64,000 nt of DNA from an uncultured delta proteobacterium (GTDB taxonomy: Bacteria > Desulfobacterota > Syntrophobacteria > BM002), in the NCBI GenBank assembly GCA_963712115.1, contig CAVQGX010000007.1, positions 14,978 to 78,977 on the forward strand. The letters are read 5' to 3'. Below, one piece after another: positions 1,967 through 62,712 of the stretch; position 1 is the first letter of the stretch; the number at the start of each line of letters is the position of its first letter. A program made the translations under genes and the position numbers. The notes beneath the pieces were generated by a model. It did not search any database and was not told the DNA's origin. It saw nothing but the letters and a program-made list of their open reading frames with translations.

Positions 1967-2092
1967 CTCATTGGGCATTTCACATTTTGCATCTGGCATT
2001 TATCAATCTCACATGAGAAGCATAATCAGACTCCATTTCATCCAAATGGGAAATGATAGATGAGAAATGGAGAATGCGAAATTTGAAATGTG
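1967..2092. repeat. fold-back heptamer array (NNCATTT)n ... (AAATGNN)n
   Basis: ggcattt-cacattt-tgcatct-ggcattt on the left, aaatggg-aaatgat-agatgag-aaatgga-gaatgcg on the right. Confidence 0.8.
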
Positions 2093-2107
2093 CGGGCAGT
2101 CTGTTGT

Positions 2108-3364
2108 CTATCCGTACAGATGCTCAAAAGTCTCCCAGAATTGGGGAAAAGACTTGTTTACACACATCTCATCAACTATACGGACTCCCTTCGCCACCAG
2201 CCCAGCAACGGCGAAACTCATGGCAATTCGGTGATCATTATGGGAATCAATCAAGGCTCCTTGGGGATTTCCACCTCTGATAGTGAGGCAGTCTTCCTTC
2301 TCCTCCACCTGGACATTCATTTTCTCAAGTCCTTCTGCAATCGCTCGGAGTCGATCGCTTTCTTTTATCCGCAGGTGGCCAACGTTAGTGATAACCGTTT
2401 TACCTTGGGCAAAGGCAGCCGTGACAGCGAGAGTTGGCACCATGTCGGGCATATCCTTCATATCCACCTCAATAGATCGAAGTTCTCCACCATACAGTGT
2501 CACACCGTAGTCATGCCACTCAGCCCGACATCCCATCTGGCATAGAATGTCCAGAAAGGCCAAATCCCCTTGACGGCTCTTATGGAGGATGTTTTTAGTT
2601 GACACTTTTCCCCCGGTGATGGCGGCGGCTGCCCAAAAGTATGAGGCCGATGAGCAGTCTCCCTCCACATCATAACTGCCTGCCAGGTAGCGTCCCGGCG
2701 CCTCCACCCGGAGATTTTCCTCATCCAGCCAACGCGCCTTTGCGCCAAACACGGACATCCCCTCCAAGGTCACATCTACGTACGGCTTGGAAACCAGTCC
2801 CTGGACGGCAACCTCAACGGGCTGTGAAGCATAGGGTGCCGCTAAAAGAATGGCAGAAACGAACTGACTTGATCGGCTCGCATTCACTTTGGTGCTGCCA
2901 CCTTTGAGACCACTGCCGTGGATGCGTACAGGAGGATAGCCCCTTTCTTGCAGGCTTTCAACCACTCCCCCTAGTGGCTGCAAGGCGACCAGCAGTTCTT
3001 CAATGGGACGAGTGTGCATTCGCTCATTTCCGACAAGTACAGACGATCCCCGGCCCAAACAGGCCACTGCAGTTAGTAACCTCATGGAGGTGCCTGCGTT
3101 TTCCAGATAGATGGGTTCTGACGGACAATTGAGGACGCCGCCCGTGCCAATTACTTCTATTGCCTCGGGTGAATGTCTGATCTGTGCCCCGAACCTTTCG
3201 AGCGCCGTTGCGGTGTAGCGGGTGTCATCGCACCAAAGTCCGTTGCGCAGCCAACTCCTCCCCTCGGCAAGGGCAGCCATAATTAGGTAGCGGTGGGTAA
3301 CGCTTTTGGAACCTGGGATATTTACAGATTTATCGAGATTATCAATGGTCTTTATCTGCTTCAT
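2108..3364 (-). CDS. aroA: 3-phosphoshikimate 1-carboxyvinyltransferase (EPSP synthase)
   Basis: PGSKSVTHR, NAGTSMR, SSQF, RIKESDR, DHRIAMS, KSFP motifs; start placed at MKQIKT (ORF track extends to 3403). Confidence 0.96.
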   Translation of the reverse strand: MKQIKTIDNLDKSVNIPGSKSVTHRYLIMAALAEGRSWLRNGLWCDDTRYTATALERFGAQIRHSPEAIEVIGTGGVLNCPSEPIYLENAGTSMRLLTAVACLGRGSSVLVGNERMHTRPIEELLVALQPLGGVVESLQERGYPPVRIHGSGLKGGSTKVNASRSSQFVSAILLAAPYASQPVEVAVQGLVSKPYVDVTLEGMSVFGAKARWLDEENLRVEAPGRYLAGSYDVEGDCSSASYFWAAAAITGGKVSTKNILHKSRQGDLAFLDILCQMGCRAEWHDYGVTLYGGELRSIEVDMKDMPDMVPTLAVTAAFAQGKTVITNVGHLRIKESDRLRAIAEGLEKMNVQVEEKEDCLTIRGGNPQGALIDSHNDHRIAMSFAVAGLVAKGVRIVDEMCVNKSFPQFWETFEHLYG

Positions 3365-3412
3365 TGCAAGTCTTGACACCCTGTTGCACGTGGTTGACTC
3401 CAAGGGTGTGAA

Positions 3413-4234
3413 CTATAGGGTTTCGTCTCCAGCTGCCTCCTCGAGCGCCCTACGCATAACTTCAACAGGCGCCGCTCTGCCAGTCCAGATTTCAAACTGG
3501 GCAACACCTTGATAAAGAAGCATGTCGAGTCCGGAAAGGCAGCCGCATCCAGCCCTCTCAGCATCTTGGAGAAGTCTTGTTTTAAGCGGGCGATATACCA
3601 TGTCCAAAACCACCATTCCGTCTCGCAGCCAATGAGCTGGAACCAGACTCTGATCCATTGTGGCCGACATACCCACGGTGGTGGCATTCACGACAAAATC
3701 CGTTCTGAACTGATCCCAGGCTTGCCCTGGCACAAAAGTGCAGTTCATTTCAGCTGCAAGCTTCTGTCCACGTGCTTCATTTCGGTTCATGATAAAAACT
3801 TGTGTGTCCTTGCTTTGCAAGCCATAGATAGCAGATCGAGCCGCACCACCGGCCCCCAGAATCAGGCCACGCTTACCCCCAAGCTCGGTCATCTGCTCCA
3901 ATGCCTGAACAACTCCCAGCCAGTCTGTATTGCTTCCATACAACCTGCCCTCTCGGGACAGAATTGTGTTCACTGCACCAATAGCGCGGCCTATCTCATC
4001 CACCTCGTCCAGATGGGGTATAATTTTTTCTTTGTGAGGAACCGTAATGCTGGCTCCTCGAAAACCCAATTTTCTTATGGCGGAGGCGGCTTCCCCTGCC
4101 TCATCCACCCGAAAAGCCAGATAGGCCAGGTTCAAACCCAGGTAAGAGAAGGCAGCGTTGTGCATCTGGGGGCTCAGGCTGTGGGCAACCGGATTGCCGA
4201 AAATAGCCACATATTCGGTCTGGGCGTCGATCAT
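3413..4234 (-). CDS. aroE: shikimate dehydrogenase
   Basis: GNPVAHSLSP.MHN, TVPHK, GAVNT, NTD, GAGGAA, DMVY.P..T motifs. Confidence 0.95.
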   Translation of the reverse strand: MIDAQTEYVAIFGNPVAHSLSPQMHNAAFSYLGLNLAYLAFRVDEAGEAASAIRKLGFRGASITVPHKEKIIPHLDEVDEIGRAIGAVNTILSREGRLYGSNTDWLGVVQALEQMTELGGKRGLILGAGGAARSAIYGLQSKDTQVFIMNRNEARGQKLAAEMNCTFVPGQAWDQFRTDFVVNATTVGMSATMDQSLVPAHWLRDGMVVLDMVYRPLKTRLLQDAERAGCGCLSGLDMLLYQGVAQFEIWTGRAAPVEVMRRALEEAAGDETL

Positions 4235-7205: not shown

Positions 7206-7230
7206 CGGAACATACTCAGCAACTATCGGG

Positions 7231-7311
7231 TCAGCATGCGCGCACAGCTCCCTCTATCGCCACCATGGCGTAATAATAATAGCAAAAAAATGGGGAGGGC
7301 CGTCGCTTCAT
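7231..7311 (-). CDS. aro operon leader peptide (Phe/Tyr-rich, 26 aa)
   Basis: MKRRPSPFFCYYYYAMVAIEGAVRAC*, with AAAGGG upstream; its GGGAGCTGTG segment can pair with the terminator 5' arm and loop. Confidence 0.82.
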   Translation of the reverse strand: MKRRPSPFFCYYYYAMVAIEGAVRAC

Positions 7312-7503: not shown

Positions 7504-7519
7504 AGGCATGAAGCTTGCA
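7504..7519 (+). promoter_or_regulatory. sigma54 (-24/-12) promoter
   Basis: AGGCATGAAGCTTGCA: GG-N10-GC with TTGCA, 40 nt upstream of the ATG at 7559. Confidence 0.6.
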
Positions 7520-7558
7520 TTCCATTTCCAGCCGGTACATTGGAAGAGGAGACCTACA

Positions 7559-8032
7559 ATGAGTGAGGACATTGTAAAAAGAGTGATAGCGAGAGTTGAA
7601 GAAATGTCCCGAGCTGGTGAGGTGTTCGAGGACAGAGACTTAGAGGAATTCGCCGTTACCATTCAACATCTTCTGAGAGAACGGACCCGCAGAGAGGAAA
7701 TTCTTGCCATCGCCGCCGCCACTCTAGCCTTAGACGAACACAAAAAAAGTCTTGAGAATAAAGTTGAGTATGCCAAGGTTGGTGGCCTCAAAGAAAGGGA
7801 GGCAACACTGCTGGAGATCTTGGACCAGATTGACAAAGAACTAGAGATGGCCGTGACCATGAAGATCCACGAATACACCTACCAAAAAAATATCGCTGAT
7901 GAGCTCAAAACGGCCATATTGGAGCATCTTGCGCCCACTATGGGGCGAGGAAAATGGCATGCCCGTGAACAGGAAGCTTTAATGCAAATTGTATCCAAAG
8001 CCCTGGAAGGGTACATGGTGGTTAAAGCCTAG
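7559..8032 (+). CDS. hypothetical helical/coiled-coil protein
   Basis: GAGGAG RBS before MSEDIVK; charged, helical composition. Confidence 0.75.
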   Translation: MSEDIVKRVIARVEEMSRAGEVFEDRDLEEFAVTIQHLLRERTRREEILAIAAATLALDEHKKSLENKVEYAKVGGLKEREATLLEILDQIDKELEMAVTMKIHEYTYQKNIADELKTAILEHLAPTMGRGKWHAREQEALMQIVSKALEGYMVVKA

Positions 8033-11553: not shown

Positions 11554-11692
11554 CGCAGAGTGCGCAGCATATAGCTCTGAAGTTAAGTAGTCAGGAGCCA
11601 GAAGTCAGAATTCAGGAGAACCACGCATGCCACATTTGGCATCCAAAATCTTTTACCCTATGCTCCATGCCCTAGGCTCTATGCTCTATGCC
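11554..11692. repeat. nested heptamer arrays between trpD and trpC
   Basis: agtcagg-agccaga-agtcaga-attcagg lies inside gcgcag/gcatat ... ctatgct-ccatgcc-ctaggct-ctatgct-ctatgc. Confidence 0.7.
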
Positions 11693-12745
11693 TTATCGGT
11701 TGGTTATCTCTTTGAGCGCTTCCAGCTTTTTCATGGCCGCTCCCGAGTCGATGGCCTCCGCGGCCTGCTTAATACCTTCGTTGAAATCTCCGGCCCGCCC
11801 GGCAGCAACCAAGGCAGCAGCAGCATTGAGCAACACAATATCTCTTCGAGCTCCCGGTTCACCCTGGAGCACTCTTAGAACTATCTGGGCATTTTCATCA
11901 GCGTTGCCCCCTTTGATCTCATCAATAGACGCACGGGGCAGACCAAAATCTTCGGGTTCAATGGTGTACGTTGACACTTGACCATTTTTCAGCTCGCTGA
12001 CAAAGGTGCGGCCAGTAATGCTGATTTCATCGAGACTATCCTCGCCGTGCACCACAAAGGCACTCCGGGAGCCCAGCCTGTTCAAGACCTCGGCAAGAAC
12101 CGGTGTGAGCTTTTTATCGTAGACACCTAATATTTGGACATTGGCTCCTGCCGGATTTGTAAGAGGCCCGAGGATGTTAAAGATACTTCTAATGCCGATC
12201 TCTTTTCTGGGTCCAATGGCGTACTTCATTGCCCCGTGCAGTGCTGGTGCAAAGAGAAAGCCGATACCCACCCTACTGAGACACTCCTCCACCACTGCGG
12301 GGGACACATCCAAGTTCACCCCCAGATTCTCAATGACATCGGCGCTACCGCAAAGGCTCGATACCGAGCGATTTCCGTGCTTGGCCACCCGCAAGCCACA
12401 GCCTGCCACAACAAAGGCGGCAGTGGTGGAAACATTAAAAGTGTTGGTGCCGTCACCCCCCGTCCCGCAGGTATCGACGATGGTCTCCAAATCCAGGTTG
12501 ATGTCGTCCCGGTCCATGCTCACCATGGAATTATCCACAGCGATCCTAGTAGCTTTTCGTCGCATAACCCGGGCGGCTCCGGCAATTTCCTCGATGGTCT
12601 CACCTTTGAGCCTGAGGGCGGTGATGAAGGCGCCGATTTGGGCTGGCGTTGCCTCGCCGCTCATGATCACATCCATAGCAGCTTCCATTTCTTCTTCGCC
12701 CAGATCCTTGCCATCTACCACTTTCTGGATGGCCATCTTAAGCAT
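11693..12745 (-). CDS. trpD: anthranilate phosphoribosyltransferase
   Basis: [42 protein letters not shown] motifs. Confidence 0.97.
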
Positions 12746-12778
12746 GATCTCCTCCTTTGGTGATCCTCTGGAAGTCTA

Positions 12779-12933
12779 AACCACGGAGAGCACAGAGCCC
12801 ACAGAGGGTTGGGATTTCTGATTGTTGATCTTAGATTGCAGATTGAGAAATCTTCCCTTTCTAGGTAAATCACTCTGCAATCTACAATCTAAAATCTAAA
12901 ATGTCCTCTGTGTTCTCAGTGGTCTCTGTGGTT
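12779..12933. repeat. composite fold-back element: outer 9-mer arms, inner 7-mer arms (copy 1)
   Basis: AACCACGGAGAGCACAGAG ... AGATTGCAGATT ... AATCTACAATCTAAAATCTAAAAT ... CTCTGTGGTT; homologous copies at 33195 and 49311. Confidence 0.85.
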
Positions 12934-12965
12934 AAACCCCATCTACCTTTGCCAGCTGTAAAAAT

Positions 12966-13548: not shown

Positions 13549-13648
13549 CATTGCAGATATTAGATTTTAGATTTAAGATTGCAGATTAAATAATCTTAAA
13601 ATTTGCCCAATCATATCTGCCTCAATCCGAAATCCGCAATCCGAAATC
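13549..13648. repeat. fold-back heptamer array between trpE and trpG
   Basis: agatatt-agatttt-agattta-agattgc-agatt ... aatccga-aatccgc-aatccga-aat. Confidence 0.75.
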
Positions 13649-15266: not shown

Positions 15267-15359
15267 CTACTCACCTGGCAGTGGATAAACTCCTACACAG
15301 ACGTACCACCACCAGTACCAGTTGACGAGATTTTTCTGTCTATTTAGGTTTTTCTTCAT
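15267..15359 (-). CDS. trpL: trp operon leader peptide (30 aa)
   Basis: MKKNLNRQKNLVNWYWWWYVCVGVYPLPGE* with AAGGA RBS; contains antiterminator arm AGGAGTTTATCCAC complementary to GTGGGTAAACTCCT of terminator 1. Confidence 0.92.
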   Translation of the reverse strand: MKKNLNRQKNLVNWYWWWYVCVGVYPLPGE

Positions 15360-15883: not shown

Positions 15884-15899
15884 TGGCATTGTAATTGCA
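15884..15899 (+). promoter_or_regulatory. sigma54 (-24/-12) promoter
   Basis: TGGCATTGTAATTGCA: GG-N10-GC, near consensus, 38 nt before the ATG at 15937. Confidence 0.7.
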
Positions 15900-15936
15900 T
15901 AGTTATCAAGGCGAACTATCAGGCCAGGAGACTGTC

Positions 15937-16674
15937 ATGAAGCAGAAAACTTTGCTCCTTTTCCAGCTCTTGCTAGCGGTTTTCTCCATTTATTCAGTTC
16001 TCAAATACAGTGGCAACCAGCGTATGATCATCCCTCTTACCTGTCTTGTTGCCATGTTTTTGGTGGGGAAAGTAGAGACTGCTGTCACCGAAAGCGAGAA
16101 GAAGAAAAAGGACGAAAGGGCAAAAAGGAGAAAGGGTACTGAAGAAAAGACGACGTTCAAGCCAGTCGACTGCCTGCTTAAGAGCAAGAATGTGCTACTC
16201 CTGACCGATGCAATTCACTACCTTTTGAATGAGCTAGGCCTAAAAGTCTCCCGCTCTCCAGATCAGACTTTCATTGACCGCTTGATCAGAACGGATGACA
16301 GCAACCAGGTAACCTTTGGTCTGAAAGTGCTTGGAGACGTTGGAGAGCTTAGCGAGAATTGGGAGAGTTGGGAGGAAGTTACTGACTTTGATATGGGGAA
16401 AGGTGGGAATAGACGTCTTGTTCTTATCAGCAGCAATAGTACTCAAGAGGAAGATGACGGTAAGCCAAAGTTCAGCGATTTTCCAGCTAATATTCAAAGC
16501 CTACTTTCTTCCAAAAACATAGTTGCTATGACCACCCTCACCTTTTACAAAATTTATCTTCTTTGCCAAAAAAAGAGTGTTAAACCCGGAGCGATTCTTG
16601 ACCTTATTCACCGTCACCCCGGCGGTGTTTTCCGCTTGGAACAATATATGAAGGGTTCCAAACAGGCCGCTTGA
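15937..16674 (+). CDS. membrane-anchored hypothetical protein, possible degenerate restriction-endonuclease-like domain
   Basis: AGGAG RBS; two N-terminal hydrophobic helices, a basic linker and an alpha/beta domain (L.ELGLKV...IDRLI...FGLKV...LVLIS). Confidence 0.7.
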   Translation: MKQKTLLLFQLLLAVFSIYSVLKYSGNQRMIIPLTCLVAMFLVGKVETAVTESEKKKKDERAKRRKGTEEKTTFKPVDCLLKSKNVLLLTDAIHYLLNELGLKVSRSPDQTFIDRLIRTDDSNQVTFGLKVLGDVGELSENWESWEEVTDFDMGKGGNRRLVLISSNSTQEEDDGKPKFSDFPANIQSLLSSKNIVAMTTLTFYKIYLLCQKKSVKPGAILDLIHRHPGGVFRLEQYMKGSKQAA

Positions 16675-16750: not shown

Positions 16751-16878
16751 GTCATTTATCATCTCCCATTGCACATTTCGCATTTATCATTTGTGCAAAG
16801 AGCCGAGCCCCATGAATGGTTTTATTTTTCAAGCTTGAACATACAATGATAAATGACAGATGCGAAATGAGAAATGAC
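16751..16878. repeat. fold-back heptamer array (NNCATTT / AAATGNN)
   Basis: catttat-catctcc-cattgca-catttcg-catttat-cattt ... caatgat-aaatgac-agatgcg-aaatgag-aaatgac. Confidence 0.8.
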
Positions 16879-19274: not shown

Positions 19275-19395
19275 TAAGTTGCACCTCCAACCTGTCAAAA
19301 AGATTTTCTCCTCCTTCTTCGCCTCAAGACTCAGATCTGATATTTTACCATACTCCTGCTGCGCCCTCGGACACGACCATTCTCCCTGGCCTAGC

Positions 19396-19571
19396 CCGGA
19401 TGTTTCATGAATCACTTGCTGCGACCGCGGATATGAACGTCCTTCCGGGCGTCCTCAGGTGTCGTACCCTGCGACGTACCGTTCAGGTACGCCTCGGGTT
19501 CAACACCCTGCGGTTGCCCGGTGGCACGCCCATCTTCGTGGTCTCGCGACAGCAATTCATGAAACATCCGG
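19396..19571 (+). mobile_element. MITE-like element, family A, copy 1
   Basis: Perfect 17-bp TIR CCGGATGTTTCATGAAT...ATTCATGAAACATCCGG; non-coding; homologous to 26621 and 58801. Confidence 0.85.
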
Positions 19572-20534: not shown

Positions 20535-20573
20535 CCCTTTCTCCCTCTCAGCTGGGTTCAGCCCGGACTTGGG

Positions 20574-20773
20574 GTTAACCCTAATGTTGCATACCTACAC
20601 CGGTAAAAACCGCTGCGCTCGCTCGATTGCACACCATCTGCGGCTGTGCTCGCCTCGGACAGGACTTCACGTACGGTCAAGTACGCCTCGACCTGTCCGA
20701 GCCTGCACGCAGCCACATCTGACGCACTCTTGAGCGTTTTTACTCGACATTGCTATGCAACACTAGGGTCAAC
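20574..20773 (+). mobile_element. MITE-like fold-back element, family B
   Basis: TIR GTTAACCCTAATGTTGCATA...TATGCAACACTAGGGTCAAC; nested internal inverted repeats; apical ACGTACGGTCAAGTACGCCTCG. Confidence 0.78.
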
Positions 20774-24152: not shown

Positions 24153-24186
24153 TATTGGAGTAATGGAGTGGTGGAGTAATGAATGG
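24153..24186. repeat. octamer array (TGGAGTAA)n
   Basis: tggagtaa-tggagtgg-tggagtaa-tgaatgg. Confidence 0.6.
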
Positions 24187-26620: not shown

Positions 26621-26803
26621 AACCAGGATGTTTAATGTATCGCTTGCTGCGACCCTGGATTTGGCCGTCCTCCCGGGCGTCCTCGGGTGTCGGCTACTGC
26701 GACGTACCGTTCAGGTACGCCTCGCAACCAACACCCTGCGGTTGCCCGGTGACACGCCCATCTTCATGGTCTCGCGACAGCAATTCATGAAAACATCCTG
26801 GTT
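26621..26803 (+). mobile_element. MITE-like element, family A, copy 2
   Basis: AACCAGGATGTTT...AAACATCCTGGTT ends; homologous to 19396; ends about 45 nt upstream of acpP. Confidence 0.85.
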
Positions 26804-28532: not shown

Positions 28533-28561
28533 CTGCTTACTGCTTTCTTTTCACTGCTTAC
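28533..28561. repeat. heptamer array (GCTTACT)n
   Basis: gcttact-gctttct-tttcact-gcttac; inverse of the array at 29211-29246. Confidence 0.6.
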
Positions 28562-28567: not shown

Positions 28568-29203
28568 TCACGGTTTACACCGGCGGCCGGGGCTAAACCC
28601 CTGATATAAGGCTTGGTAGCGGTTTTCGAAAAAAACTCGATTATGACCTGCTGTCTTGAGACCAAACTGACAATGAGGCCGGTGGAATACCCAAGTCCGT
28701 TTGTTCCCCAAATAATGCTTTTCGGGTTTGGCAACAGGTAATGACCAAATACCCTTTTTATCCTTTAAGGCTTCACGTTGGAGATTCAGCAGTCTTTCCC
28801 AGTAAAGTGTCTTGGACTGGCGACGTATTAAATGAGCATAGCCCTGTTGGACCAGCTCGCCATTGACAAAAGTACCATCTTCAAGGAAAACATAAGCCAG
28901 CAGCCTCCCATAGTGGTCACGGGACTCCTCAGCCAACTCGAGGTTTAGCCAACGGCCCAGGACCAATTTCTGGTTGAATGCCCGGGCCTCATCACCGTAG
29001 GGCTCCCCGGGTTCACCATCGTGAGCTATTTCAGGAGCGTTGATACCAGCGTAGCGCACCCGTTCACCACCCGTGAGGACAATTGTGTCACCGTCAGCCA
29101 CCCAGCGCACTCGGCCACGTTTTTCAGCACCATACAAGGGTAAAGCCGCCAGGGTGCAGACTATTAAAATAGGATGGAGTGTGAGAATGAAACGTTTGAG
29201 CAT
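28568..29203 (-). CDS. thermonuclease (SNase) family protein with signal peptide and C-terminal Ada-like metal-binding domain
   Basis: V.DGDTI, VRY.GINAPE, D.YGRLLAYV, N.ELV..GYA; tail YLGNK..FHRPHC...NRVFF...GFSP..RC.P. Confidence 0.9.
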   Translation of the reverse strand: MLKRFILTLHPILIVCTLAALPLYGAEKRGRVRWVADGDTIVLTGGERVRYAGINAPEIAHDGEPGEPYGDEARAFNQKLVLGRWLNLELAEESRDHYGRLLAYVFLEDGTFVNGELVQQGYAHLIRRQSKTLYWERLLNLQREALKDKKGIWSLPVAKPEKHYLGNKRTWVFHRPHCQFGLKTAGHNRVFFENRYQALYQGFSPGRRCKP

Positions 29204-29210
29204 ATTTAAT

Positions 29211-29371
29211 CAGTAAGCGATAAGCAGTGAGCAGTGAGCAGTAAGCCCTCGGCACTAAGTAGTCAGGAGTCAGAATTCAGAAGCCAGGAGAATCACCTAA
29301 GCGATCTGTCCTTGTCTCCTGTCTACTGGCTCCTATCTCCTAGCTCCTTTACTTAAACTATGCTCTATGCT
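29211..29371. repeat. compound heptamer arrays
   Basis: (CAGTRAG)x5, then agtcagg-agtcaga-attcaga-agccagg with complementary tcctgtc-tactggc-tcctatc-tcctagc, then ctatgct-ctatgc. Confidence 0.75.
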
Positions 29372-36415: not shown

Positions 36416-36510
36416 GGACAATCTTACGACCTCCTCAACCCCAAAAGGGAAGCACAAACCACAGAGCACTTATAGCTGCCACCGAATTCGAATTTCGGAT
36501 TTAGTAACAA

Positions 36511-36849
36511 CTATGCTGCTTTGGTGGCCCGACGGGTTTTCTTTTTCAGCCGGCTAATTCTCCTTCTAAGCAGCTGCACCTTATCTTTTTCTCCTGCCTC
36601 CCTCATTGTCTCTTTCTGGCTCCGGAGTTCCCTTATTTTCTTCTTGATGCTGCGAACGTCGCCGCTCTTGTCGCGTTTTTTCTCATCTGCAATTCCTTTG
36701 GCCTCCTTTATGGCGGCAACCAGCTCACTTTTATTCATGGCATGAACGCCGACGATACCCTCCATACCCAGGGCCATCTCTCGCAGTTCCTTGGCAGTCA
36801 TCCGATCTAGGGGTTTCTCCTTTTTTTCCTTTTTCTCTTTCTTAGCCAT
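36511..36849 (-). CDS. small basic protein with Rho N-terminal-like helical domain
   Basis: LDRMTAKELREMA...GVHAMNKSELVAAI. Confidence 0.78.
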   Translation of the reverse strand: MAKKEKKEKKEKPLDRMTAKELREMALGMEGIVGVHAMNKSELVAAIKEAKGIADEKKRDKSGDVRSIKKKIRELRSQKETMREAGEKDKVQLLRRRISRLKKKTRRATKAA

Positions 36850-41251: not shown

Positions 41252-41366
41252 GCCTTCCTCTTTGCTTTCTAACCTTAAGTCGAGTTGATCCTGAGGTTCT
41301 CATTCTAAGCGAATCGAATTAACTGATGAATCAATCCCCCTCTTGCAGCATCTAAATGTAGTTCTT

Positions 41367-41445
41367 CACCACAAAGGGCACAAAGAGCACAAAGGTTTTT
41401 TCAAATAGAAGTAGTTCCTTTGTGTACTTTGAGATCTTCGTGGTT
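41367..41445. repeat. fold-back nonamer array
   Basis: caccacaaag-ggcacaaag-agcacaaag ... ctttgtgta-ctttgagat-cttcgtggtt. Confidence 0.8.
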
Positions 41446-41461
41446 AAGCCTGCTTCAGGCC

Positions 41462-41941
41462 TCAAGGCATGGTTGCACTCACTTGGGGTGCCACCCAGAT
41501 TTCAACTCCGGTTTTCAGGGGATACTCGGCCACACTTACTAGGCAGCTACGCTTATCCTTTTCGAAGTTCAGGATTACCCGGCGATAGCGAAAACTGGAT
41601 TTCAGAATCCAACCGTCCTTGGGCATATTAGTGGTAAAAAAATTTACCAGTGACTCACCCTGCACATACCCCTCGAACACCAGGACACCAGCTGAAAAGG
41701 AGGGCGTACTGTAGACAAAGGAATTCTTTTTATTAAGGGAAAGTTCTGCGGGAATTAAAATGTCAGCAAAGTCATAGTAGACAGGAGCCGGTCCTTTAAC
41801 TTCACTTTTCTTCTCTTCAGTTTCTCCAGAGTTATCCTCAGACTTTTGAAAAGCCGCACACCCGAAGCCGACAAGGAAAAGCAGCGAAACCAAACAGATT
41901 AGCAAACCACTTCTACCTGCAATACCACCATCAATTCTCAT
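41462..41941 (-). CDS. putative lipoprotein
   Basis: Hydrophobic signal ending GFGC (lipobox-like); YYDF.DILIP.EL motif. Confidence 0.75.
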   Translation of the reverse strand: MRIDGGIAGRSGLLICLVSLLFLVGFGCAAFQKSEDNSGETEEKKSEVKGPAPVYYDFADILIPAELSLNKKNSFVYSTPSFSAGVLVFEGYVQGESLVNFFTTNMPKDGWILKSSFRYRRVILNFEKDKRSCLVSVAEYPLKTGVEIWVAPQVSATMP

Positions 41942-42531: not shown

Positions 42532-42699
42532 TTGTTCTCCCGTGGTCTCGCGCCTGACCTTCGCGGTAAGGGAATTGAACCTCGCTGGTCACATAACCCC
42601 TTTAGTTGCTTGATATTATTGAGAGTATATCGGTATCCACCAAACCCGTCAATGATTAAGGCAAAGCTCTACGAGCTTTGCCTTACGAGACTGGATGTC

Positions 42700-42814
42700 G
42701 GGCGAGAGGGGAAATCGGGAATAACGGGTATTTGATTATTTTGATTGTGCACCTCTCTCCCGTATCGCTCGTCTCGCTGTTTCCCCGTGCCTGGTGCCTA
42801 GTGCTCAGTGCCTA
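42700..42814. repeat. degenerate octamer/heptamer fold-back array
   Basis: gggcgaga-ggggaaat-cgggaata ... ccgtatcg-ctcgtctcg-ctgtttcc, then gtgcctg-gtgccta-gtgctca-gtgccta. Confidence 0.55.
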
Positions 42815-43465
42815 GTTCGCACTGCGGTTGAACCGCAGTCCGTTAATAACCCCGTGGCAACGGCAGGCGGTCGCCACTAGAATATTCTTCACCGAGGATC
42901 TCGCTGCTTCGAGAAGCCGCCAAAGAGTTGACAATTGGTAGCCGCCAACACCTGGCGTCAGTTGATGGCTGCGAACCACCAGGGTCTTATAGCCACGGAC
43001 CTCTATTTGTTGGATAAGCTCATACAAATTAGCTTCGCGACGTTCTCGGGTGACGCTACAGATATCTTCAGGCTCCTCACAGTCGTTGGGACAGCGAAAG
43101 GTTGCAAAACTCGTATAGAGAACCCCTCCTTTGCCTCTCATGGGGTTGGGAATTTGCTGATCGAGAGCTGAAGGGGCGACAAGTGGCGTAACTGCCCCCT
43201 CTTTGGTCAACTGTTGACAGAGCCAGGAGAAAGCAACATGTTCGGGAATTGCTGGGATAATCCACTCATTCCCCGCACCAGTATGGGATAGAAGAAAGTC
43301 GACAGCATCCTGTTTTATGATCTTCAAGGGCTCATCCCTCAGATCATCCAGTGCATCTTCATGGTGATCCACTACTAGCAAATTGCATCTCCTTTTTCGC
43401 TGCAAAATGCGCTTCGCCGCTAAAGAGCCAAAATGTCCGGCTCCAAGAATCCAAAAAGATTCCAT
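42812..43465 (-). CDS. NAD-binding (TrkA_N-like) domain protein with Cys-rich C-terminus
   Basis: ILGAGHFG Rossmann motif; CPNDC..P..C, SHQL.PGVGG, ATACRCHGV. Confidence 0.75.
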   Translation of the reverse strand: MESFWILGAGHFGSLAAKRILQRKRRCNLLVVDHHEDALDDLRDEPLKIIKQDAVDFLLSHTGAGNEWIIPAIPEHVAFSWLCQQLTKEGAVTPLVAPSALDQQIPNPMRGKGGVLYTSFATFRCPNDCEEPEDICSVTRERREANLYELIQQIEVRGYKTLVVRSHQLTPGVGGYQLSTLWRLLEAARSSVKNILVATACRCHGVINGLRFNRSAN

Positions 43466-43530
43466 GAACCCTACCCTTTTTTTATCTTTCATTATCTTAA
43501 CAACATGATAGAGTAAACAGCAAACTATCG

Positions 43531-43641
43531 CAGATACTAGATTGCAGATTTTAGATTTCAAACTGACCTATCTTAAAAATATGGAATTCCGCAATCTGAA
43601 ATAACCATCACGCCATCGCTCCAATACTCCAGTACTCCATT
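43531..43641. repeat. heptamer fold-back plus octamer array
   Basis: agatact-agattgc-agatttt-agattt ... attccgc-aatctga-aat; ctccaata-ctccagta-ctccatt. Confidence 0.65.
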
Positions 43642-43649: not shown

Positions 43650-43678
43650 TTGACACCCCCTTTTTTTAATTTTATAGT
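43650..43678 (+). promoter_or_regulatory. sigma70 promoter upstream of tatD
   Basis: TTGACA-N17-TATAGT. Confidence 0.7.
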
Positions 43679-43744: not shown

Positions 43745-43897
43745 AGATGTGGGATGTGCGATATGCGATCTATAAATTTAGGAATTGCGAATTAAGGGAT
43801 TAAGGAATTGAGCCTGGTCTAGAAAAATCCCTGAATTCCTCAATCCCTAAATTCCTAAATTTGATTCCCGCATCTCAGATCTCAGATCTCACATCCA
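43745..43897. repeat. nested fold-back (outer 7-mer, inner 8-mer) in the tatD 5'UTR
   Basis: gatgtgg-gatgtgc-gatatgc [ggaattgc-gaattaag-ggattaag ... aatccctg-aattcctc-aatcccta-aattccta] gcatctc-agatctc-agatctc-acatc. Confidence 0.8.
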
Positions 43898-43907
43898 GAT
43901 AAAAAAC

Positions 43908-44744
43908 ATGTTTGTAGATACCCATTGTCATCTTGACTTTGATGATTTTGCCAAAGATCGAGGAGATATTCTGGCTCGAGCGAAGCGGGCCGGCGTCCAG
44001 CAAATGGTCACCATAGGAATCGATCTTCCCTCCTCCAGGCGAGCCATCGCACTGGCTGAGAACAATGGAGAGATTTACGCCACAGTAGGAATCCATCCCC
44101 ATGATGCCAAGGTTCTTTCTCCTGAGGACATCCAGGAGTTGCTCAGCCTAGGAAGTAAATCACAAGTTGTAGCTTACGGCGAGATTGGCCTAGATTTCTT
44201 CCGCAATTATCAAGCGCAATCTGTGCAAGTCGCTTGCATGGAGGAGCAACTTAATTTGGCCCATCAATTAGGATTGCCCGTGGTCATTCATGATCGCGAG
44301 GCTCACCAAGAGATCTTCCAGATCTTGCAGGAAAATAAGGTCTGGGAAATAGGTGGAGCCATGCATTGCTTTTCTGGCGACTGGTCCTTTGCGAAAAAAT
44401 GTTTAGATCTCGGCTTGTACCTCTCCATAGCAGGACCCGTTACCTTCGATAAATCACAAATTCTGCAGGAGCTGGCCCAAAATTGTCCACTTGACCGGTT
44501 ACTTATTGAGACCGACGCCCCTTTTCTGGCTCCAGTACCCAAACGTGGCAAAAGGAACGAACCCGCTTTTGTAGTTTACACGGCAGAAAAAATCGCATCT
44601 TTGAGGAAACTCCCCTTGGAGGACGTAGCCAGACAGACCAGTTTAAACGCCCGACAGCTCTTCAGGCTGCCAACTCCGGAACCATTTAGAGTAGGAAAAA
44701 TTGTAACCACAGAGGACACAGAGATTACAGAGCATAGGAGTTAG
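43908..44744 (+). CDS. tatD: TatD family deoxyribonuclease
   Basis: DTHCHL, GIHPH, GEIGLD, IHDREA, HCFSG, ETDAPFLAP...RGKRNEP motifs. Confidence 0.95.
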   Translation: MFVDTHCHLDFDDFAKDRGDILARAKRAGVQQMVTIGIDLPSSRRAIALAENNGEIYATVGIHPHDAKVLSPEDIQELLSLGSKSQVVAYGEIGLDFFRNYQAQSVQVACMEEQLNLAHQLGLPVVIHDREAHQEIFQILQENKVWEIGGAMHCFSGDWSFAKKCLDLGLYLSIAGPVTFDKSQILQELAQNCPLDRLLIETDAPFLAPVPKRGKRNEPAFVVYTAEKIASLRKLPLEDVARQTSLNARQLFRLPTPEPFRVGKIVTTEDTEITEHRS

Positions 44745-44970
44745 CTCTAAATTCGAAATCCTAAATTCTCCTTCGGAGTCCCCACCCTGCGGGCGGGGTC
44801 CCGGTTTCGAAGCACAAAACAAATTAGGGAATTAAGGTTAGAATTGAGGAATTAAGAGATTAGGCTTCGTTCTTTTTTCAATCCCTGAATTCCTGAATCC
44901 CTAAATTCCTTAATCTGTGCATTTCGATATTCGGATTTCGGATTTATTCTTTCCCATGATTTTTGTGGTT
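44705..44970. repeat. triply nested fold-back element (9-mer > 7-mer > 8-mer) with an inserted GC hairpin
   Basis: accacagag arms, attcgaaatcct/gatttcggattt arms, ggaattga/aattcctg core; cccaccctgcgggcggg inserted near 44780. Confidence 0.8.
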
Positions 44971-45023
44971 TAATCTTTTCCTCCTCTCAATTGCGAGCCG
45001 GCGAATTCGTGCCACCGGTTAAA

Positions 45024-45623: not shown

Positions 45624-45650
45624 GTGGCAATGCTTCGAGGGGTGTATAAA

Positions 45651-45877
45651 ATCACAGAGATCACTGAGCAGATGAGCTACCATAAAATTCGAAATCCTAA
45701 ATTCTCCTTCGAGAGCTCACGAACCTGACAGACATAATCCTAATTTCGAATTCTCCAATGCTCAAAACAAAAACCAATAAATTAGTGGTTTGTTAGTTTT
45801 TGTCATTTGGATTTTGAAAATTTGAATTTGTTTAGGATTTCGATATTCGGATTTCGGATTTGCTCTCCTCTGTGGTT
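45651..45877. repeat. composite fold-back element (AAATTCGAAATCCTAAAT family, copy 1)
   Basis: 9-mer outer arms; inner aaattcgaaatcctaaat ... tttgtttaggatttcgatattcggatttcggattt; related copies at 57507 and 61358. Confidence 0.8.
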
Positions 45878-45909
45878 TCAATTTTCGGCCGTTGCAAGTA
45901 GAGGACTCT

Positions 45910-47329: not shown

Positions 47330-47434
47330 GGGAGGGGCTATTTTTGTAGTCAACGAGTGTTTTGGCCTCAGATTTCGGGTTTCAGCTTTCAGGGCTTTAG
47401 GTCTTAGTAATCCAAAACCTCGGTGGTTTGTTGT

Positions 47435-49273: not shown

Positions 49274-49310
49274 TCCACCCCTTATTTGTCAACAAAATCT
49301 TTGAGTTGAG

Positions 49311-49456
49311 AACACAAAGGTCACAAAGCAATGTAATTTCAAATTGTTGATTGTAGATTGCAGATTGCGAGATCTTCCAGGTACTACTTGTGTCAATCTA
49401 CAATCTACAATCTCCAATCTCAAATATCCTTTGCCTTCTCTGTGCTCTCTGTGGTT
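49311..49456. repeat. composite fold-back element (copy 3 of the 12779 type), overlapping the 3' end of the DUF4416 gene
   Basis: aacacaaag ... gattgtagattgcagattg ... caatctacaatctacaatctccaatct ... ctctgtgctctctgtggtt. Confidence 0.85.
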
Positions 49457-49986
49457 TGTTCTGCTCTTCGCACTTGCAGCAAGTACTTCTCTCTCAAGGC
49501 CCGAAGCCAACGTCGGACTTCCGACTCTCCATAGTCCGGATAGGTCCAAGCCAGAGGCTGATAGTCTTTGTCACGGTAAATCAGGGTCAAATCCGCGTAG
49601 ATGCCTTTACTAAGGTAGATCCGATGTCCATAATTCTTGCCGCTGGCCAGCACCAATCGTTCGGCCACCAGGTAACCTGGATCAATATTAACAAGTCGGT
49701 TTCCCTCTTCGGTCTGCTCATCTTCGAACGCATTGGTCTGAACTTTGATCAAGGCTAAATCTTCCTGTCGGATCAGGCGATCAAAGCTGGCAAACCGGCG
49801 GAACAAGACTTCACCCATCTCTGCACAATAATAATCGGTGTAGTTGAATAGCAGCAATGGGCTAACAAAATCCAGTATGCCATAATGAGCGGCGAGTTCG
49901 GACAATGTTGCGTTTATGCGTTCCGCAGAAGAAGAAATCACGCTGACGAACAGCTTTGCCGGTTTCGGCTCCTGTGGAGTGCTCAT
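49420..49986 (-). CDS. DUF4416 family protein
   Basis: F.YTDYY..EMG, L..IK..TN..E, R.VNIDPGY, HRIYL..GIYA, WTYPDY motifs. Confidence 0.88.
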   Translation of the reverse strand: MSTPQEPKPAKLFVSVISSSAERINATLSELAAHYGILDFVSPLLLFNYTDYYCAEMGEVLFRRFASFDRLIRQEDLALIKVQTNAFEDEQTEEGNRLVNIDPGYLVAERLVLASGKNYGHRIYLSKGIYADLTLIYRDKDYQPLAWTYPDYGESEVRRWLRALREKYLLQVRRAEQTTESTEKAKDI

Positions 49987-52450: not shown

Positions 52451-52590
52451 GTGTGGAATCTACCTTGTAAAAATTACGCTGGCTGCACCTGAATATAGCA
52501 CAGCATTGCAAGGAAGCCAGCACTTTTTTGCTAGGTCCAAGAGGTTAGCTCCAGAGGGCTTAGTAAGAGTCAAAGGCTGTGCCATTCGTC

Positions 52591-52711
52591 AAATTTCGGA
52601 TTGTAGACTTCGGATTTCGGATGCAAAATAATAAAATACAAATCTAGAGCTAAATTAGAATTCCGCAATCCCCATTCCCAAATCCGCGATCTTGTTGCTC
52701 CATTACTCCAA
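52591..52711. repeat. fold-back heptamer array plus octamer remnant
   Basis: atttcgg-attgtag-acttcgg-atttcgg ... attccgc-aatcccc-attccca-aatccgc. Confidence 0.7.
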
Positions 52712-52834
52712 AAACCAGCCCGGGTGGGTGGGAGCTTAAACCTCCTCTGGGGATCTCGCACAGAGACGCGTTCCATGGACCTGTAAGTGCTTGGTCATTT
52801 ACAAACTAACGTGCTTCAATTACACTTTGGCCTT

Positions 52835-57251: not shown

Positions 57252-57506
57252 CCTTAGCCCTTCCTAGTACAAAAGAAAAGTGAAAATCCAACCACATAGG
57301 AGTTCTGCCTTGACTTCACCCCGCTCAAATAAAACTTGTCCCAAGTGGATTAGTGACTGTAATGAGGACCCCATTATCCTTGGGAACCTTAAGCATACGT
57401 GGCAAAAAATGAACTGGTATTGTATATTAGACCCACGAATTCTGTAAAGCCCAGTGACTATAGATGCAACTTCACCTATGATCTTTAACTGGTCAATGGC
57501 GGATTT

Positions 57507-57724
57507 AACCACAGAGAACACGGGGAAAATAAATCCGAAATCCTAATATCGAAATCCTAAACAAATTCAAATTCTCAAAATCCAAATGACCAAAACTTTA
57601 AAATCATATATTGATTCCATGTTGTTTTGAACATTGGAGAATTTGAAATTCGGATTTGTTTCGTGCTTAGGATTTAGGATTTCGAATTTAGTGGCAACTA
57701 CGCTACTCCTAGGTCTCTGTAGTT
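57507..57724. repeat. composite fold-back element (AAATTCGAAATCCTAAAT family, copy 2)
   Basis: aaccacagag outer arm; aaatccgaaatcctaatatcgaaatcctaaacaaat ... atttgtttcgtgcttaggatttaggatttcgaattt. Confidence 0.85.
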
Positions 57725-57751
57725 TAATTCCTAGCCTTATGACCGCTCACT

Positions 57752-58711: not shown

Positions 58712-58800
58712 TTAATCTTAATGTATTTTATGAGTTTTGTAGATCTAAATTGTAGTATTGTTAGCTACTTCAGGAATGATTGATTGTGGGAGCTGCTTTA

Positions 58801-58984
58801 AACCGGATGTTTCATGAATTGATGTCGCGAGGCCTTGGAGATGGGCGTGCCACTGGGCAACCGTACCGCGGGATTGGTTCCGAGGCGTACCTGAACGGTA
58901 CGTCGCAGGAGCCGACACCCGAGGACGCCCAGAAGAACGGCCACATCCTTGGCCACAGCAAGCGATTCATGAAACATCCGGGTT
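58801..58984 (-). mobile_element. MITE-like element, family A, copy 3 (inverted)
   Basis: CCGGATGTTTCATGAAT...ATTCATGAAACATCCGG flanked by TTAA; core is the reverse complement of copies 1 and 2. Confidence 0.85.
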
Positions 58985-58987
58985 AAG

Positions 58988-60058
58988 CTAGGGAGCCTGG
59001 CGAAGCTGCCAGAGAGCTATCGTCAAAATTAGAGCTACAGGGGTTAAGGTGGTGAGCGGTGCAGGGAACTCTAACAATAGCCCTAGATAGCCGATTATCT
59101 GATTTGCCAGATAAAAACCAATTCCCACCGAGGCTCCCAGGGTTATCCTCAATCCCACGGTCATGCCCCGTGGTGGCCCAAATACGAAGGGTAGTGAGAG
59201 TAGAACCATTGCACCCGTTGTTAAAGGCATGACCAGTTTCTGCCACAGAGCCAGACTGTAGTTGTCCGCATTCTGTCCCCTCTCCCGAAGAGCCTTGATA
59301 TACAAGTATAAGTCTGACGGTGCTAGGCTCTCTGGAGGTAGTTCCAAGACACTAACCTGGTCCTTACTAAAAAATGAGTCAATCTCTAGGCTTGGTAAGT
59401 ACTGGGTGCTGATCCCCTGCTCCTCGATGACCTTTTTTTGAATGTCCTTGAGTGTCCATCGTCCATCTTTATGGATATCTGCTTCACGCGCATGAATAAA
59501 GGATCGTAAAAAACCCTCTTCGTCACGTTCGTAAATATCCAAATCCGCCGCAATTCCACCCGACAGGGTTAAGCCAACTCGGATGAAGGAGTTGCCATGC
59601 CGCGCCCAAAATCCCCGTTTCGTCAACATAATGCCACTTGAACCCGAGAGTGATAAAGAGCGGCGCGCATGGGCATATTGCTCAAGTTGCGGTACTATAT
59701 ATTGTTCGGTGGCGGCACTGGCTAGCATAAGCAAGCCTGCAGAGGCAAGCACTGAAAAGCAAATTCTCCGGACTGACAATCCAGCAGCTCGCATGGCAAT
59801 AAGTTCGCCTCTTTCGGCCAACATCCCGAGGCCAATGATCCCACCCAGCAGAGCACTGATGGGCAACATATCAATGATTCTCTTGGGGAGTGTCAGACCA
59901 ACGAAGATGAAAGCGTCAACTGCCTGGAAATTCCCTTTGCCCACATCGTCGAGTTGGGTCACTAAATCCAGAAAACTAAACAAAGAGACCAGAACGAGGA
60001 CCACCAAGAAAAAGCCCCGGAAAAAACTACTGCCTAGGTAACGATCAAGTGTTCTCAT
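58988..60058 (-). CDS. lptG: LptG-family permease (second copy, in the lipid cluster)
   Basis: TLDRYL, P...ALLG...L...GELIAMRAAGLS, LW.KL..P motifs. Confidence 0.85.
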   Translation of the reverse strand: MRTLDRYLGSSFFRGFFLVVLVLVSLFSFLDLVTQLDDVGKGNFQAVDAFIFVGLTLPKRIIDMLPISALLGGIIGLGMLAERGELIAMRAAGLSVRRICFSVLASAGLLMLASAATEQYIVPQLEQYAHARRSLSLSGSSGIMLTKRGFWARHGNSFIRVGLTLSGGIAADLDIYERDEEGFLRSFIHAREADIHKDGRWTLKDIQKKVIEEQGISTQYLPSLEIDSFFSKDQVSVLELPPESLAPSDLYLYIKALRERGQNADNYSLALWQKLVMPLTTGAMVLLSLPFVFGPPRGMTVGLRITLGASVGIGFYLANQIIGYLGLLLEFPAPLTTLTPVALILTIALWQLRQAP

Positions 60059-60171
60059 TTATCATTTATCATTTCGCATTTGTCATTTTTCAATTCATAT
60101 ATCGAGCTTCCAGTCTTATCCCTCAATGTGCAATGAGAAATGAGCAATGGGAGATGAAAAATGGCAAATGG
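60053..60171. repeat. fold-back heptamer array (NNCATTT / AAATGNN) between lptF and lptG
   Basis: ctcattt-atcattt-atcattt-cgcattt-gtcattt ... caatgag-aaatgag-caatggg-agatgaa-aaatggc-aaatgg. Confidence 0.85.
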
Positions 60172-60205
60172 GCTATGTTCTGTGATCTCTCCCCAATGGT
60201 GGCCT

Positions 60206-61357: not shown

Positions 61358-61558
61358 AACATAGAGAACACGAATCCACATAGCACCACTAAATTCGAAA
61401 TCCTAAATCCTAAGCACGAAACAAATCCCAGTGTCAAATTCTCCAATTTTTAAAACAAAAGCGAATCAACATGTGACTTAAGAGTTTGGTAATTTGAAAT
61501 TGTTTCGGATCTCGAGTTAGATTTCGGATCACGCTATCCTCGAGGTCTCACGTCGGTT
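61358..61558. repeat. composite fold-back element (AAATTCGAAATCCTAAAT family, copy 3)
   Basis: 61386-61428 is the exact 43-bp reverse complement of 57652-57694. Confidence 0.85.
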
Positions 61559-61580
61559 TCATTCTAAGCGGTGCGACCGG

Positions 61581-62390
61581 TTACTTGTGCTGTAGGTCTC
61601 TGGCCACAATTGATTCAACTAGCTTCCAGTCGCTTAAGCTATCAACATCCACTGCTGCTTCCGGAAAGGGCAGGAGAACGGCACCGGCTCTTAGCCCAAT
61701 CCGCTGCGATATTCGTTCCAACCCTTCTTCAAGAGATGGCCGCTTCAGCAAATAGAGCAATAAGTTGAGCCAACCAAAACCAGCGATAACCCGCAATGTT
61801 TTTTTGCGCTGGCTTTCAACCTTACGCCAAAAAAGAGCTGCAATCCGCGCCTCAGGTGTCAGGAAACCGAAGAGGTTACATGAGCAGTAAGAAGCGTCTC
61901 CCAGTGGAATAGCAGTTCTCTTCGTCTCCGGATATTTAGCCGTAACCAATTCATGCAGAGCCAGTCCTACTACTACGTCCTTATTGCTTTGGCGAGCCCC
62001 GGAGCAGAAATAATCCACTATCTCGGCAGTGAGCAGCGCATGGTCTGCTGTGGTCACCAAAACTGGGGTGCTATCTGGCAGAGACTGCATAGCGTGGTAA
62101 GTGCTGGAGCTTGGAGTTGCCTGACTTTCCAGCCATCTAACCTTACCCGAACCGATACGAACACAAAGTTCTTTGTCCTGCTCTACAGCAGACTTGTCAG
62201 GCCCGCAAAGTACTATTCCTTCTATCTCCCGAGCTGCCTCTAGAGCATCAAGTACGCGGAGTACCATTGCCCTTCCCCCCACCGGAGTCAGAGACTTGGA
62301 GCTAACGCCGGCGGCCCTGGCCACCGGGTCCCCAGAACTGCGGTCTCCGGCTAGGACCACCGCAGTAAAAGGTGTTATCAGCCTGCTCAT
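61581..62390 (-). CDS. MobA-like nucleotidyltransferase
   Basis: AVVLAG.R...DP.A...G...K.L..VGG, TTADHALLT, CNLF, EAAVDVD...D motifs. Confidence 0.85.
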   Translation of the reverse strand: MSRLITPFTAVVLAGDRSSGDPVARAAGVSSKSLTPVGGRAMVLRVLDALEAAREIEGIVLCGPDKSAVEQDKELCVRIGSGKVRWLESQATPSSSTYHAMQSLPDSTPVLVTTADHALLTAEIVDYFCSGARQSNKDVVVGLALHELVTAKYPETKRTAIPLGDASYCSCNLFGFLTPEARIAALFWRKVESQRKKTLRVIAGFGWLNLLLYLLKRPSLEEGLERISQRIGLRAGAVLLPFPEAAVDVDSLSDWKLVESIVARDLQHK

Positions 62391-62535
62391 AAAGTTGTTT
62401 ACTCCTGCCGGGGGACTACTGGCAACATAGTAAACTGGCTAACATCCCACAAGTTTATTTAACATCCAAAACCCGGTCCTTAGGGCTAGGTCAGTCCCGC
62501 CCGTGGCGGGATTGCCGCGACGATTACGAGCTGTC

Positions 62536-62712
62536 TTGGAGCATTGGAGTATCAGAAATTCCAAATTCCAGGGTTTTAGGTGTCAGGTTTCGGGTTTCAG
62601 GTGTCAGGAGATGAAACACAAAGGCTGAAACCTGAACACTGAAACCTGAAACCTCAGGTAATGTGATTTGGGATTTAATAGATTCCATCATTCCAACATT
62701 CCATTATTCCAA
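62536..62712. repeat. triply nested fold-back element (8-mer > 7-mer > 7-mer)
   Basis: ttggagca-ttggagta [aaattcc-aaattcc [ggtgtca-ggtttcg-ggtttca-ggtgtca ... ctgaaac-ctgaaca-ctgaaac-ctgaaac] gatttgg-gattt] ttccatca-ttccaaca-ttccatta-ttcca. Confidence 0.85.

Follow-up and report, generated by a model that had tools for sequence, protein, structure and literature searches.

The window analysed here is a 64,000-nucleotide stretch of an uncultured delta proteobacterium (contig CAVQGX010000007.1, positions 14,978 to 78,977), a gene-dense region of 49% G+C that carries the aro and trp operons, tatD-maf-yggS, rlmB-gmk-remA-yicC and lptFG. Neither Rfam families nor tRNAs gave a match anywhere in the window, and rRNA is likewise absent. 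Its intergenic gaps are occupied by short fold-back elements, each made of two inverted arms of 3-6 degenerate 7-, 8- or 9-nt units placed round a loop. An earlier note, made from the sequence alone, had counted at least 20 loci where a run of such units is followed by its complement; this was slightly high, since two complementary arms are clear at 16 loci, and about eight others are partial, chimeric or single-arm (11586, 24153, 28533, 36480, 42787, 43530, 47368 and the outer arms 29207/29360). The elements are listed below with the kind of evidence for each; ">" means "encloses", z is the fold z score (computed at 23 loci on both strands), and only the promoter is assigned a strand.

1967-2092: NNCATTT 7-mer fold-back, empty, aroA-tyrA gap (29/43 paired; weak fold z)
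11586-11696: partial or chimera, AGTCAGR arm and unrelated CTATGCT arm, without partner arm, trpD-trpC gap
12776-12935: 9-mer (NNCACAGAG) fold-back round AGATTNN 7-mer fold-back, trpG-trpD gap (z -9.3)
13550-13648: AGATTNN 7-mer fold-back, trpE-trpG gap (periodicity, pairing)
16752-16877: NNCATTT 7-mer fold-back, 5' of a sodium/solute symporter gene (periodicity, fold, pairing)
24153-24181: single 8-mer (TGGAGTAA) arm (periodicity)
28533-28561: single 7-mer arm, complement of CAGTRAG (periodicity)
29207-29375: CAGTRAG arm, complete AGTCAGR fold-back (29255-29348) and CTATGCT arm (periodicity, pairing)
33195-33316: 9>7 composite, homologue of 12776 and 49309 (fold, pairing, homology)
36470-36512: mini hairpin remnant of the AAATCCG family (z -4.4)
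41366-41446: plain 9-mer fold-back, empty, found in L002 and not in L005 or L007 (fold, pairing, orthologues)
42690-42816: degenerate paired arms and a lone GTGCCTA arm (periodicity)
43530-43640: AGATTNN pair and one remaining 8-mer arm (periodicity)
43650-43678, plus strand: sigma-70-type tatD promoter, TTGACA-17-TATAGT, kept in relatives (sequence)
43745-43900: GATGTGN 7-mer round GGAATTRA 8-mer, tatD leader (z -7.4)
44702-44972: 9-mer > long AAATCCG 7-mer > small palindrome and 8-mer, tatD-maf (pairing, homology)
45648-45880: 9-mer > long AAATCCG 7-mer with small insert, maf-yggS (86% to the L003 orthologue)
47368-47392: remainder of a partly deleted GTCAG composite, intact in L004, rlmB-gmk (orthologue comparison)
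49309-49440: 9>7 composite, DUF4416-yicC, loop varying among orthologues (orthologue comparison)
52590-52715: GATT 7-mer pair and one 8-mer arm, 5' of lptF (pairing)
57503-57728: 9-mer > long AAATCCG 7-mer, not in L002, L005 or L006 (fold, orthologues)
60052-60172: NNCATTT 7-mer fold-back, lptF-lptG gap (fold, pairing)
61360-61530: eroded 9-mer > long AAATCCG composite (p 0.065)
62534-62714: 8>7>7 composite, 72% identity to the rlmB-gmk element of L004 (fold, pairing, homology)

Architecture of the Periodic Arrays

The gaps were scanned for periodicity against 30 dinucleotide shuffles per gap. Period 7 gave 26 intergenic and 2 coding runs (shuffles: mean 0.07, maximum 1), period 8 gave 6 intergenic runs (shuffle mean 0.1) and period 9 gave 3 intergenic and 4 coding runs (shuffle mean 0.1); at periods 4-6 and 10-13 the same scan returned no intergenic run. 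Arrays of period 7, 8 and 9 are real and almost confined to intergenic DNA. We then delimited 25 arm pairs at 16 loci, leaving out the lone arm at 11586, and compared each with 200 shuffles, the control that the earlier note had asked for. Arms were more complementary than their shuffles in 23 pairs (p<=0.02, values that are optimistic because the arms were chosen by eye), and 528 of 702 aligned positions pair; the 9-mer at 44705 and the long 7-mer at 61390 (p 0.065) missed. As had been claimed, arms match in the core and vary at about two positions per unit: mismatches concentrate at two neighbouring phases, which in the NNCATTT family hold 21 mismatches in 35 positions vs 11 in 85 in the core. 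At 12 of 23 loci one strand or both fold with z<=-3, which neither strand does at the other 11, including 1967, 13550, 52592 and 61360.

Arm order is constant within a family (21 core-first pairs vs 2), and the two exceptions belong to the long AAATCCG family, which is always reversed, the cores having been picked after the data were seen. The tandem-array arms hold no internal palindrome and no GTAG or CGTC tag. Every nesting named in the earlier note was found again (9>7 at 12779, 33195 and 49311; 9>7>8 at 44705; 8>7>7 at 62536), and whole composites recur as homologous copies of 65-86% identity. The units, the arm order and the sharp outer ends are common to several phyla. By gap type, the elements of the window occupy 19 of 34 gaps between co-directional genes, 3 of 6 between divergent genes and 0 of 5 between convergent genes; in relatives convergent gaps do hold elements.

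Gain, Loss and Exchange among Relatives

One GTDB scan with YicC yielded 80 loci (L001-L080, 1.39 Mb), seven of which keep the gene order (L001-L007, YicC identity 70-89%, 99.5 kb). At tatD-maf, two of the seven genomes covering the junction (L005, L007) have overlapping genes and no element, and the other five carry a 9-mer element whose loop is plain spacer, an AGATT 7-mer (L002) or the 7>8 nest of the window. The eight genomes covering maf-yggS comprise three with a 9>long-7 composite whose inner inserts differ, one with 8>7 and four with none. The tatD leader, lying behind the clear promoter that had been noted before, carries some element in every relative covering it, with three different outer families behind the same conserved promoter. 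At rlmB-gmk the composite is whole in L004, reduced to remnants in the window and L002, and gone from L001 and L003; such half-deleted remnants are common.

At DUF4416-yicC all seven genomes hold the 9-mer arms, one of them translated as a protein tail, and the loop is empty in four and otherwise filled by an AGATT 7-mer, a long 7-mer or an 8-mer. In L004 the old spacer survives to the left and right of an inserted 8-mer element. The window and L003 have lost this spacer, and composites known from other sites stand in its place, so that loop contents are sometimes replaced and not added to, a point missed by the earlier note. L003 also carries one triple composite at two sites, 83% identical and with a shared inner insert. 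A precise insertion was found in L110: an empty element of 182 nt, from the family whose arms flank a four-helix gene there, interrupts that gene; compared with L106 it has made no target duplication and leaves a 1-nt ambiguity only.

Since orthologous junctions are found empty, filled by another family, or with the outer arms kept round new contents, the elements are mobile. The reading of them as empty, non-autonomous, mobile cassettes is borne out by this presence/absence and by the family swaps, and a preference for insertion into existing hairpins is supported. We infer that both insertion into loops and crossover exchange within the arms take place.

Two further observations concern the same sites. 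The 9-mer arms give TatD (44702-44744, the left arm of the tatD-maf element) and the DUF4416 protein (49420-49460) C-terminal tails that vary between lineages. Small non-periodic palindromes of other families sit in the arms or loops of periodic elements (window 44770-44810 and 45703-45735; L003; L004; the L006 waaF gap; the L007 tatD leader and rlmB-gmk), and the periodic elements serve as landing sites for unrelated hairpins.

Genes Enclosed by the Arms in Other Bacteria

The same families occur in Bacteroidota, Gemmatimonadota, Cyanobacteriota, and Alpha- and Gammaproteobacteria. Plasmid records of Gemmatirosa, reached via the 9-mer arm, hold triple-nested 9-mer elements at at least 39 places per record. 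In Bacteroides finegoldii (L089) the loop of a 9-mer element between radA and the next gene is filled by a GxxExxY gene, with empty copies close by. Using this protein as query led to eight records, in which the 9-mer family also encloses GxxExxY genes in Bernardetia (ade-manC) and Sphingomonas (fabD-fabG); the filled 9-mer copies are L089, L093 and L095. A Treponema gene is weakly enclosed by another 9-mer, and the remaining four have 9-periodic arrays alongside in other layouts. The enclosed GxxExxY genes belong to TIGR04256/PF13366, a PD-(D/E)XK fold, and the D...E-x-K motif is intact in all seven intact proteins.

The AGTCAGR arm of the window directly matched four-helix-bundle genes. In Trichormus such a gene fills the loop, and its product matches TIGR02436 (E 1e-34), the Avd model (E 6e-7) and PDB 2GSC. 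Three of the five four-helix records examined are enclosed (L106 and L110 by AGTCAGR arms, L107 by an 8-mer), one has direct arrays and one a single arm. Unit length follows gene family across phyla, 9-mers going with GxxExxY and 7/8-mers with the four-helix bundle. The association mentioned in the earlier note is found at real loci and is family-specific.

Enclosure was scored for 13 cargo genes, namely the eight GxxExxY records (all matches examined) and 5 of 24 four-helix records, against 40 neighbouring control genes. Six of the 13 scored above 18, a value reached by none of the 40 controls (best 16.7). Ten point the same way as the annotated gene on either side; L098 and L109 do not, and L094 is unannotated. 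The enclosed genes are promoterless and lie mostly within operons. No other gene type was met inside a loop, and no insertion sequence with a DDE transposase and the same ends was seen, among the filled copies examined. L108 passed the shuffle test as an enclosed gene and was not counted, its score being low from low complexity; long near-perfect arrays flank this gene.

As the earlier note had stated, the window itself holds no such gene, judged by NCBIfam (40 open reading frames, ORFs), Pfam (12) and tblastn. The thermonuclease gene at 28568-29203 has arms on both sides and was considered as a filled copy, but their order is wrong for enclosure. Among the relatives a weak cargo match in L047 falls inside bamA. 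The long AAATCCG element had no blastn match in plasmids or phages, and the 62530, 60045 and 43780 elements gave short arm matches only and no cargo gene. The GxxExxY protein has no match in phages and none among solved structures, inspection of further record regions and ORF motif scans (up to 104 sequences) gave no four-helix candidate, and no reverse transcriptase or template repeat lies near the elements.

Some neighbouring cases deserve mention. Repeat-flanked four-helix genes sit inside cas operons (L107, cas10-cmr3; L108, cas6-cas4), which suggests that the reported link of this protein to CRISPR loci may reflect insertion, not function. In B. finegoldii (L089 13976-14090 and other records) AGTTGAG 7-mer fold-backs lie in frame within annotated genes, such as nusA, coaD, dapF and coaBC, and are translated through. 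On a Nostoc plasmid two halves of a transposase-like frame are separated by a heptamer pair, ATTTTGG/AATCTAA, into which further inserts have come (L082 5117-5317).

RNA Helix or Protein-Binding Site

The suggestion that the hairpins act or are processed on the transcript is not supported. Mismatches on the sense strand comprise 33 G-U and 38 A-C, and the more stable strand is the sense at 13 of 23 loci and the antisense at 9. Within the window the two arms of one copy match each other no better than they match those of another, and within the clade own-arm pairing (seven elements) stands at 137/196 vs 138.6. Arm covariation across lineages (19 elements, 420/532 vs 345) is not evidence of a tuned helix, because it is gone within the clade. 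Given neither a transcript-strand G-U bias nor copy-specific covariation, the arms look like inverted protein-binding sites; the pattern fits two inverted copies of a lineage-specific putative protein site, and not tuned RNA helices.

Relation to Known Systems

Two of the window families are already published in Geobacter, a precedent overlooked in the earlier note: in 2009 paired sites of G. metallireducens, class 2 (TCTCCGTS[Y] x3) and class 3 (MTYCTGA x5), were read as putative regulator (IHF/HU) sites (PMC2700814). A by-eye comparison with the supplement alignments gives the same units as the 9-mer and AGTCAGR families of the window; tandem consensus, opposite-strand pairing, variable spacer and position within operons are alike, and in G. 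metallireducens some sites are common to both classes. The published account differs in proposing regulator sites, and its accessible part contains no mobility test or partner gene. Multicopy sequences are described as clustering in those same gaps (PMC2996986).

The elements also resemble repetitive extragenic palindromes (REPs) and the REPtrons and TIRtrons, where many empty intergenic hairpin dimers coexist with a rare, promoterless, repeat-flanked gene expressed by read-through, such as that of a REP-associated tyrosine transposase (RAYT), and where a genome holds several repeat-specific families (PMC3733652). A REP, however, is a 20-40 bp palindrome with a GTAG or CGTC tag, whereas the arms here are untagged periodic arrays, and the genes that they enclose code for PDDEXK_3 or TIGR02436 proteins where a REPtron has an HUH tyrosine transposase. 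Like miniature inverted-repeat transposable elements (MITEs), defined in the same source, the elements are non-coding, 70-300 nt long, multicopy, polymorphic and near genes, with inverted ends; unlike them they show no target-site duplication at the one precise site and no DDE transposase in the filled copies examined. In their workings the elements are like a REPtron or MITE system, but they belong to neither class: for the first they lack an HUH transposase and a tag, and for the second the target is not duplicated at the single precise site.

In the P6b hairpin of the Nostoc tRNA-Leu intron, two interchangeable classes of heptamer hairpin occur at one site, with extra inserts (PMC3488679); its accessible part treats them as markers and describes no 8/9-mer families or partner gene. 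The likeness to these short tandemly repeated repetitive (STRR) sequences lies in degenerate heptamers that pair with their own complement and receive extra elements, and similar pairs lie on Nostoc plasmids. Nested small cyanobacterial repeats were reportedly described by Elhai and colleagues in 2008. Heptamer direct repeats are given no evident mechanism (PMC4679880). The four-helix protein is reported from cas loci, from the neighbourhood of Avd and from inserts in rRNA (PMC3936711, PMC10053308, 10.1101/2024.02.27.582315). With the 23S rRNA intervening sequences and the Avd of diversity-generating retroelements (DGRs) our elements share the four-helix family and a gene in a stem-loop; they differ in that filled copies stand between protein genes, not in an rRNA gene, and have periodic arms. 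Rickettsia palindromic elements likewise insert in frame into conserved genes, as does the related 7-mer family of B. finegoldii, whereas the elements of the window contribute nothing but C-terminal tails to proteins. A homing endonuclease element would encode a nuclease that cuts the empty allele; for the GxxExxY proteins the comparison shows the catalytic motif intact in 7 of 7. The accessible part of PMC3531188 says nothing on the repeat-gene link, and we found no paper linking these repeats to GxxExxY or four-helix genes, in a search that left most subscription papers outside; database comments may already note flanking repeats. To date, the repeats have been partly described and their nature has not, and there is a real chance that they form a new class.

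Origin and Mobility of the Elements

From the sequences we could establish mobility, nesting and gene enclosure, together with an arm sequence common to empty and filled forms. That the elements belong to a mobile element with a partner gene seems to us highly probable, and the window probably holds empty, non-autonomous members of several small mobile-element families, which exist in parallel and whose full form has one promoterless gene in the loop. The best reading is a REPtron-like system in which the partners are not transposases. Its full forms would be 9-mer arms with a GxxExxY gene of the PD-(D/E)XK fold, and 7- or 8-mer arms with an Avd-like four-helix gene, expressed through read-through from the host. 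The partner oligomer would bind the fixed unit cores, one subunit per unit, and act in trans on empty copies; a nick in the extruded hairpin or next to it, and then recombination by the host, would copy the element into gene boundaries and other hairpins; and crossover inside homologous arms would exchange the loop contents. Empty copies would thus multiply in trans and decay through deletion. The nuclease of the 9-mer families is likely the GxxExxY protein. To our knowledge the four-helix bundle has no active site, so the 7/8-mer catalyst would be borrowed, either a host nuclease or, as with Avd, a reverse transcriptase. One subunit per unit is proposed by analogy with TRAP, a reading that gains some weight from arms of about five units and from a reference title that mentions a pentameric structure. 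The nick-and-recombine chemistry itself we propose only tentatively.

Several observations weigh against this proposal. Tblastn detected no cargo gene across the window and the 1.39 Mb of L001-L080, and seven of the 13 cargo genes found elsewhere are not strongly enclosed: the score of L096 lies within the control range, the L094 gene stands between two empty elements, L097, L098, L099 and L108 have arrays in other arrangements and L109 has one arm. L089 and L106 are not independent cases, because they were found via the repeat. Filled copies are tied to only two of the window's roughly eight families, just one precise empty allele was found, and PDDEXK_3 is described as of unknown function, with many transfers (PMC3424549). 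The cargo genes could be passengers for which the arms serve as a cassette, much like gene traffic of the integron type, while an unrelated host enzyme (HUH/RAYT-type, another transposase or general recombination) moves the hairpins in trans. Such passengers would account for the gene-free window and relatives, for the seven genes beside and not inside the arms, for the element-gene-element layout of L094 and for a four-helix bundle without known catalytic site, and RAYTs do move REPs in trans (PMC3733652). We nevertheless consider this unlikely, as unit length follows gene family across phyla, loops held no other gene type and the arms lack GTAG/CGTC tags.

A different possibility is that the elements are mRNA intervening sequences, excised or processed in an RNase III-like manner once their arms have paired in the transcript, and spreading via RNA with an Avd-like pentamer and a borrowed reverse transcriptase. 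In favour of this, the protein of the rRNA intervening sequences is itself TIGR02436, a homologue of Avd; elements occur in 22 of the window's 40 co-directional or divergent gaps and in 0 of its 5 convergent ones, and 12 of 23 loci fold strongly. The G-U and A-C counts, the lack of preference for an element's own arm, the convergent gaps occupied in relatives, and the intragenic copies of Bacteroides, in frame and translated through as expected if they are not removed, make this improbable. The elements could also be host cis-regulatory sites, either paired sites of a global regulator such as IHF/HU, the reading given to these families in Geobacter (PMC2700814), or stabilising hairpins. Their leader and operon positions, one of them just 3' of the tatD promoter, would agree with this, as would the presence of some element in the tatD leader of every relative covering it; but unrelated families swap at one site, sites stand empty in sister genomes, half-deleted remnants are common, arms overlap coding tails and the gene-filled forms are left unexplained, so that we give it very little credence. 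That the elements are microsatellite-like arrays with local inversion, left behind neutrally by slippage and template switching, is hardly credible. Unit number does vary, long near-perfect arrays flank the L108 gene and heptamer slippage has been proposed (PMC4679880); yet units, arm order and sharp outer ends are constant across phyla, homologous loops and whole composites occur at unlinked sites, and the 182-nt insertion is clean. This explanation is largely refuted, and slippage may tune unit number.

Other Features of the Window

A separate, non-periodic palindromic element of about 180 nt occurs at 19395-19570, 26630-26800 and 58800-58985 in copies 81-87% identical; L002 has another in remA-yicC, with CTAG on both sides, which the window lacks. 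This is an ordinary MITE-like family. Its core is related to that of another, different element, located at about 20565-20740. Reading by eye, we noted a Trp-codon-rich leader ORF 5' of trpE (about 15290-15359, minus strand) and a Phe/Tyr-codon-rich one 5' of the aro operon (7255-7311, minus strand), each with hairpins after it and both likely attenuators. The ORFs at 380-916, 7508-8032, 15895-16674 and 41462-41941 have no NCBIfam or Pfam match.

Implications

Between close species, operon junctions, leaders and protein tails are reshaped by these elements. Two widespread protein families, GxxExxY/PDDEXK_3 and the four-helix intervening-sequence protein, gain a concrete, family-specific candidate substrate, and the long-noted excess of heptamers in bacterial intergenic DNA gains a testable source. 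It is conceivable, if rather doubtful, that we are dealing with a previously unrecognised class of prokaryotic mobile element without a transposase of known type, in which GxxExxY oligomers and Avd-like pentamers would read tandem 9- or 7/8-nt cores and mobilise cassettes together with their nested passengers. If true, STRR hairpins, the paired sites of Geobacter, the in-frame inserts of Bacteroides and the rRNA intervening-sequence protein would have a common origin, and the Avd of DGRs would be a recruit from such an element.

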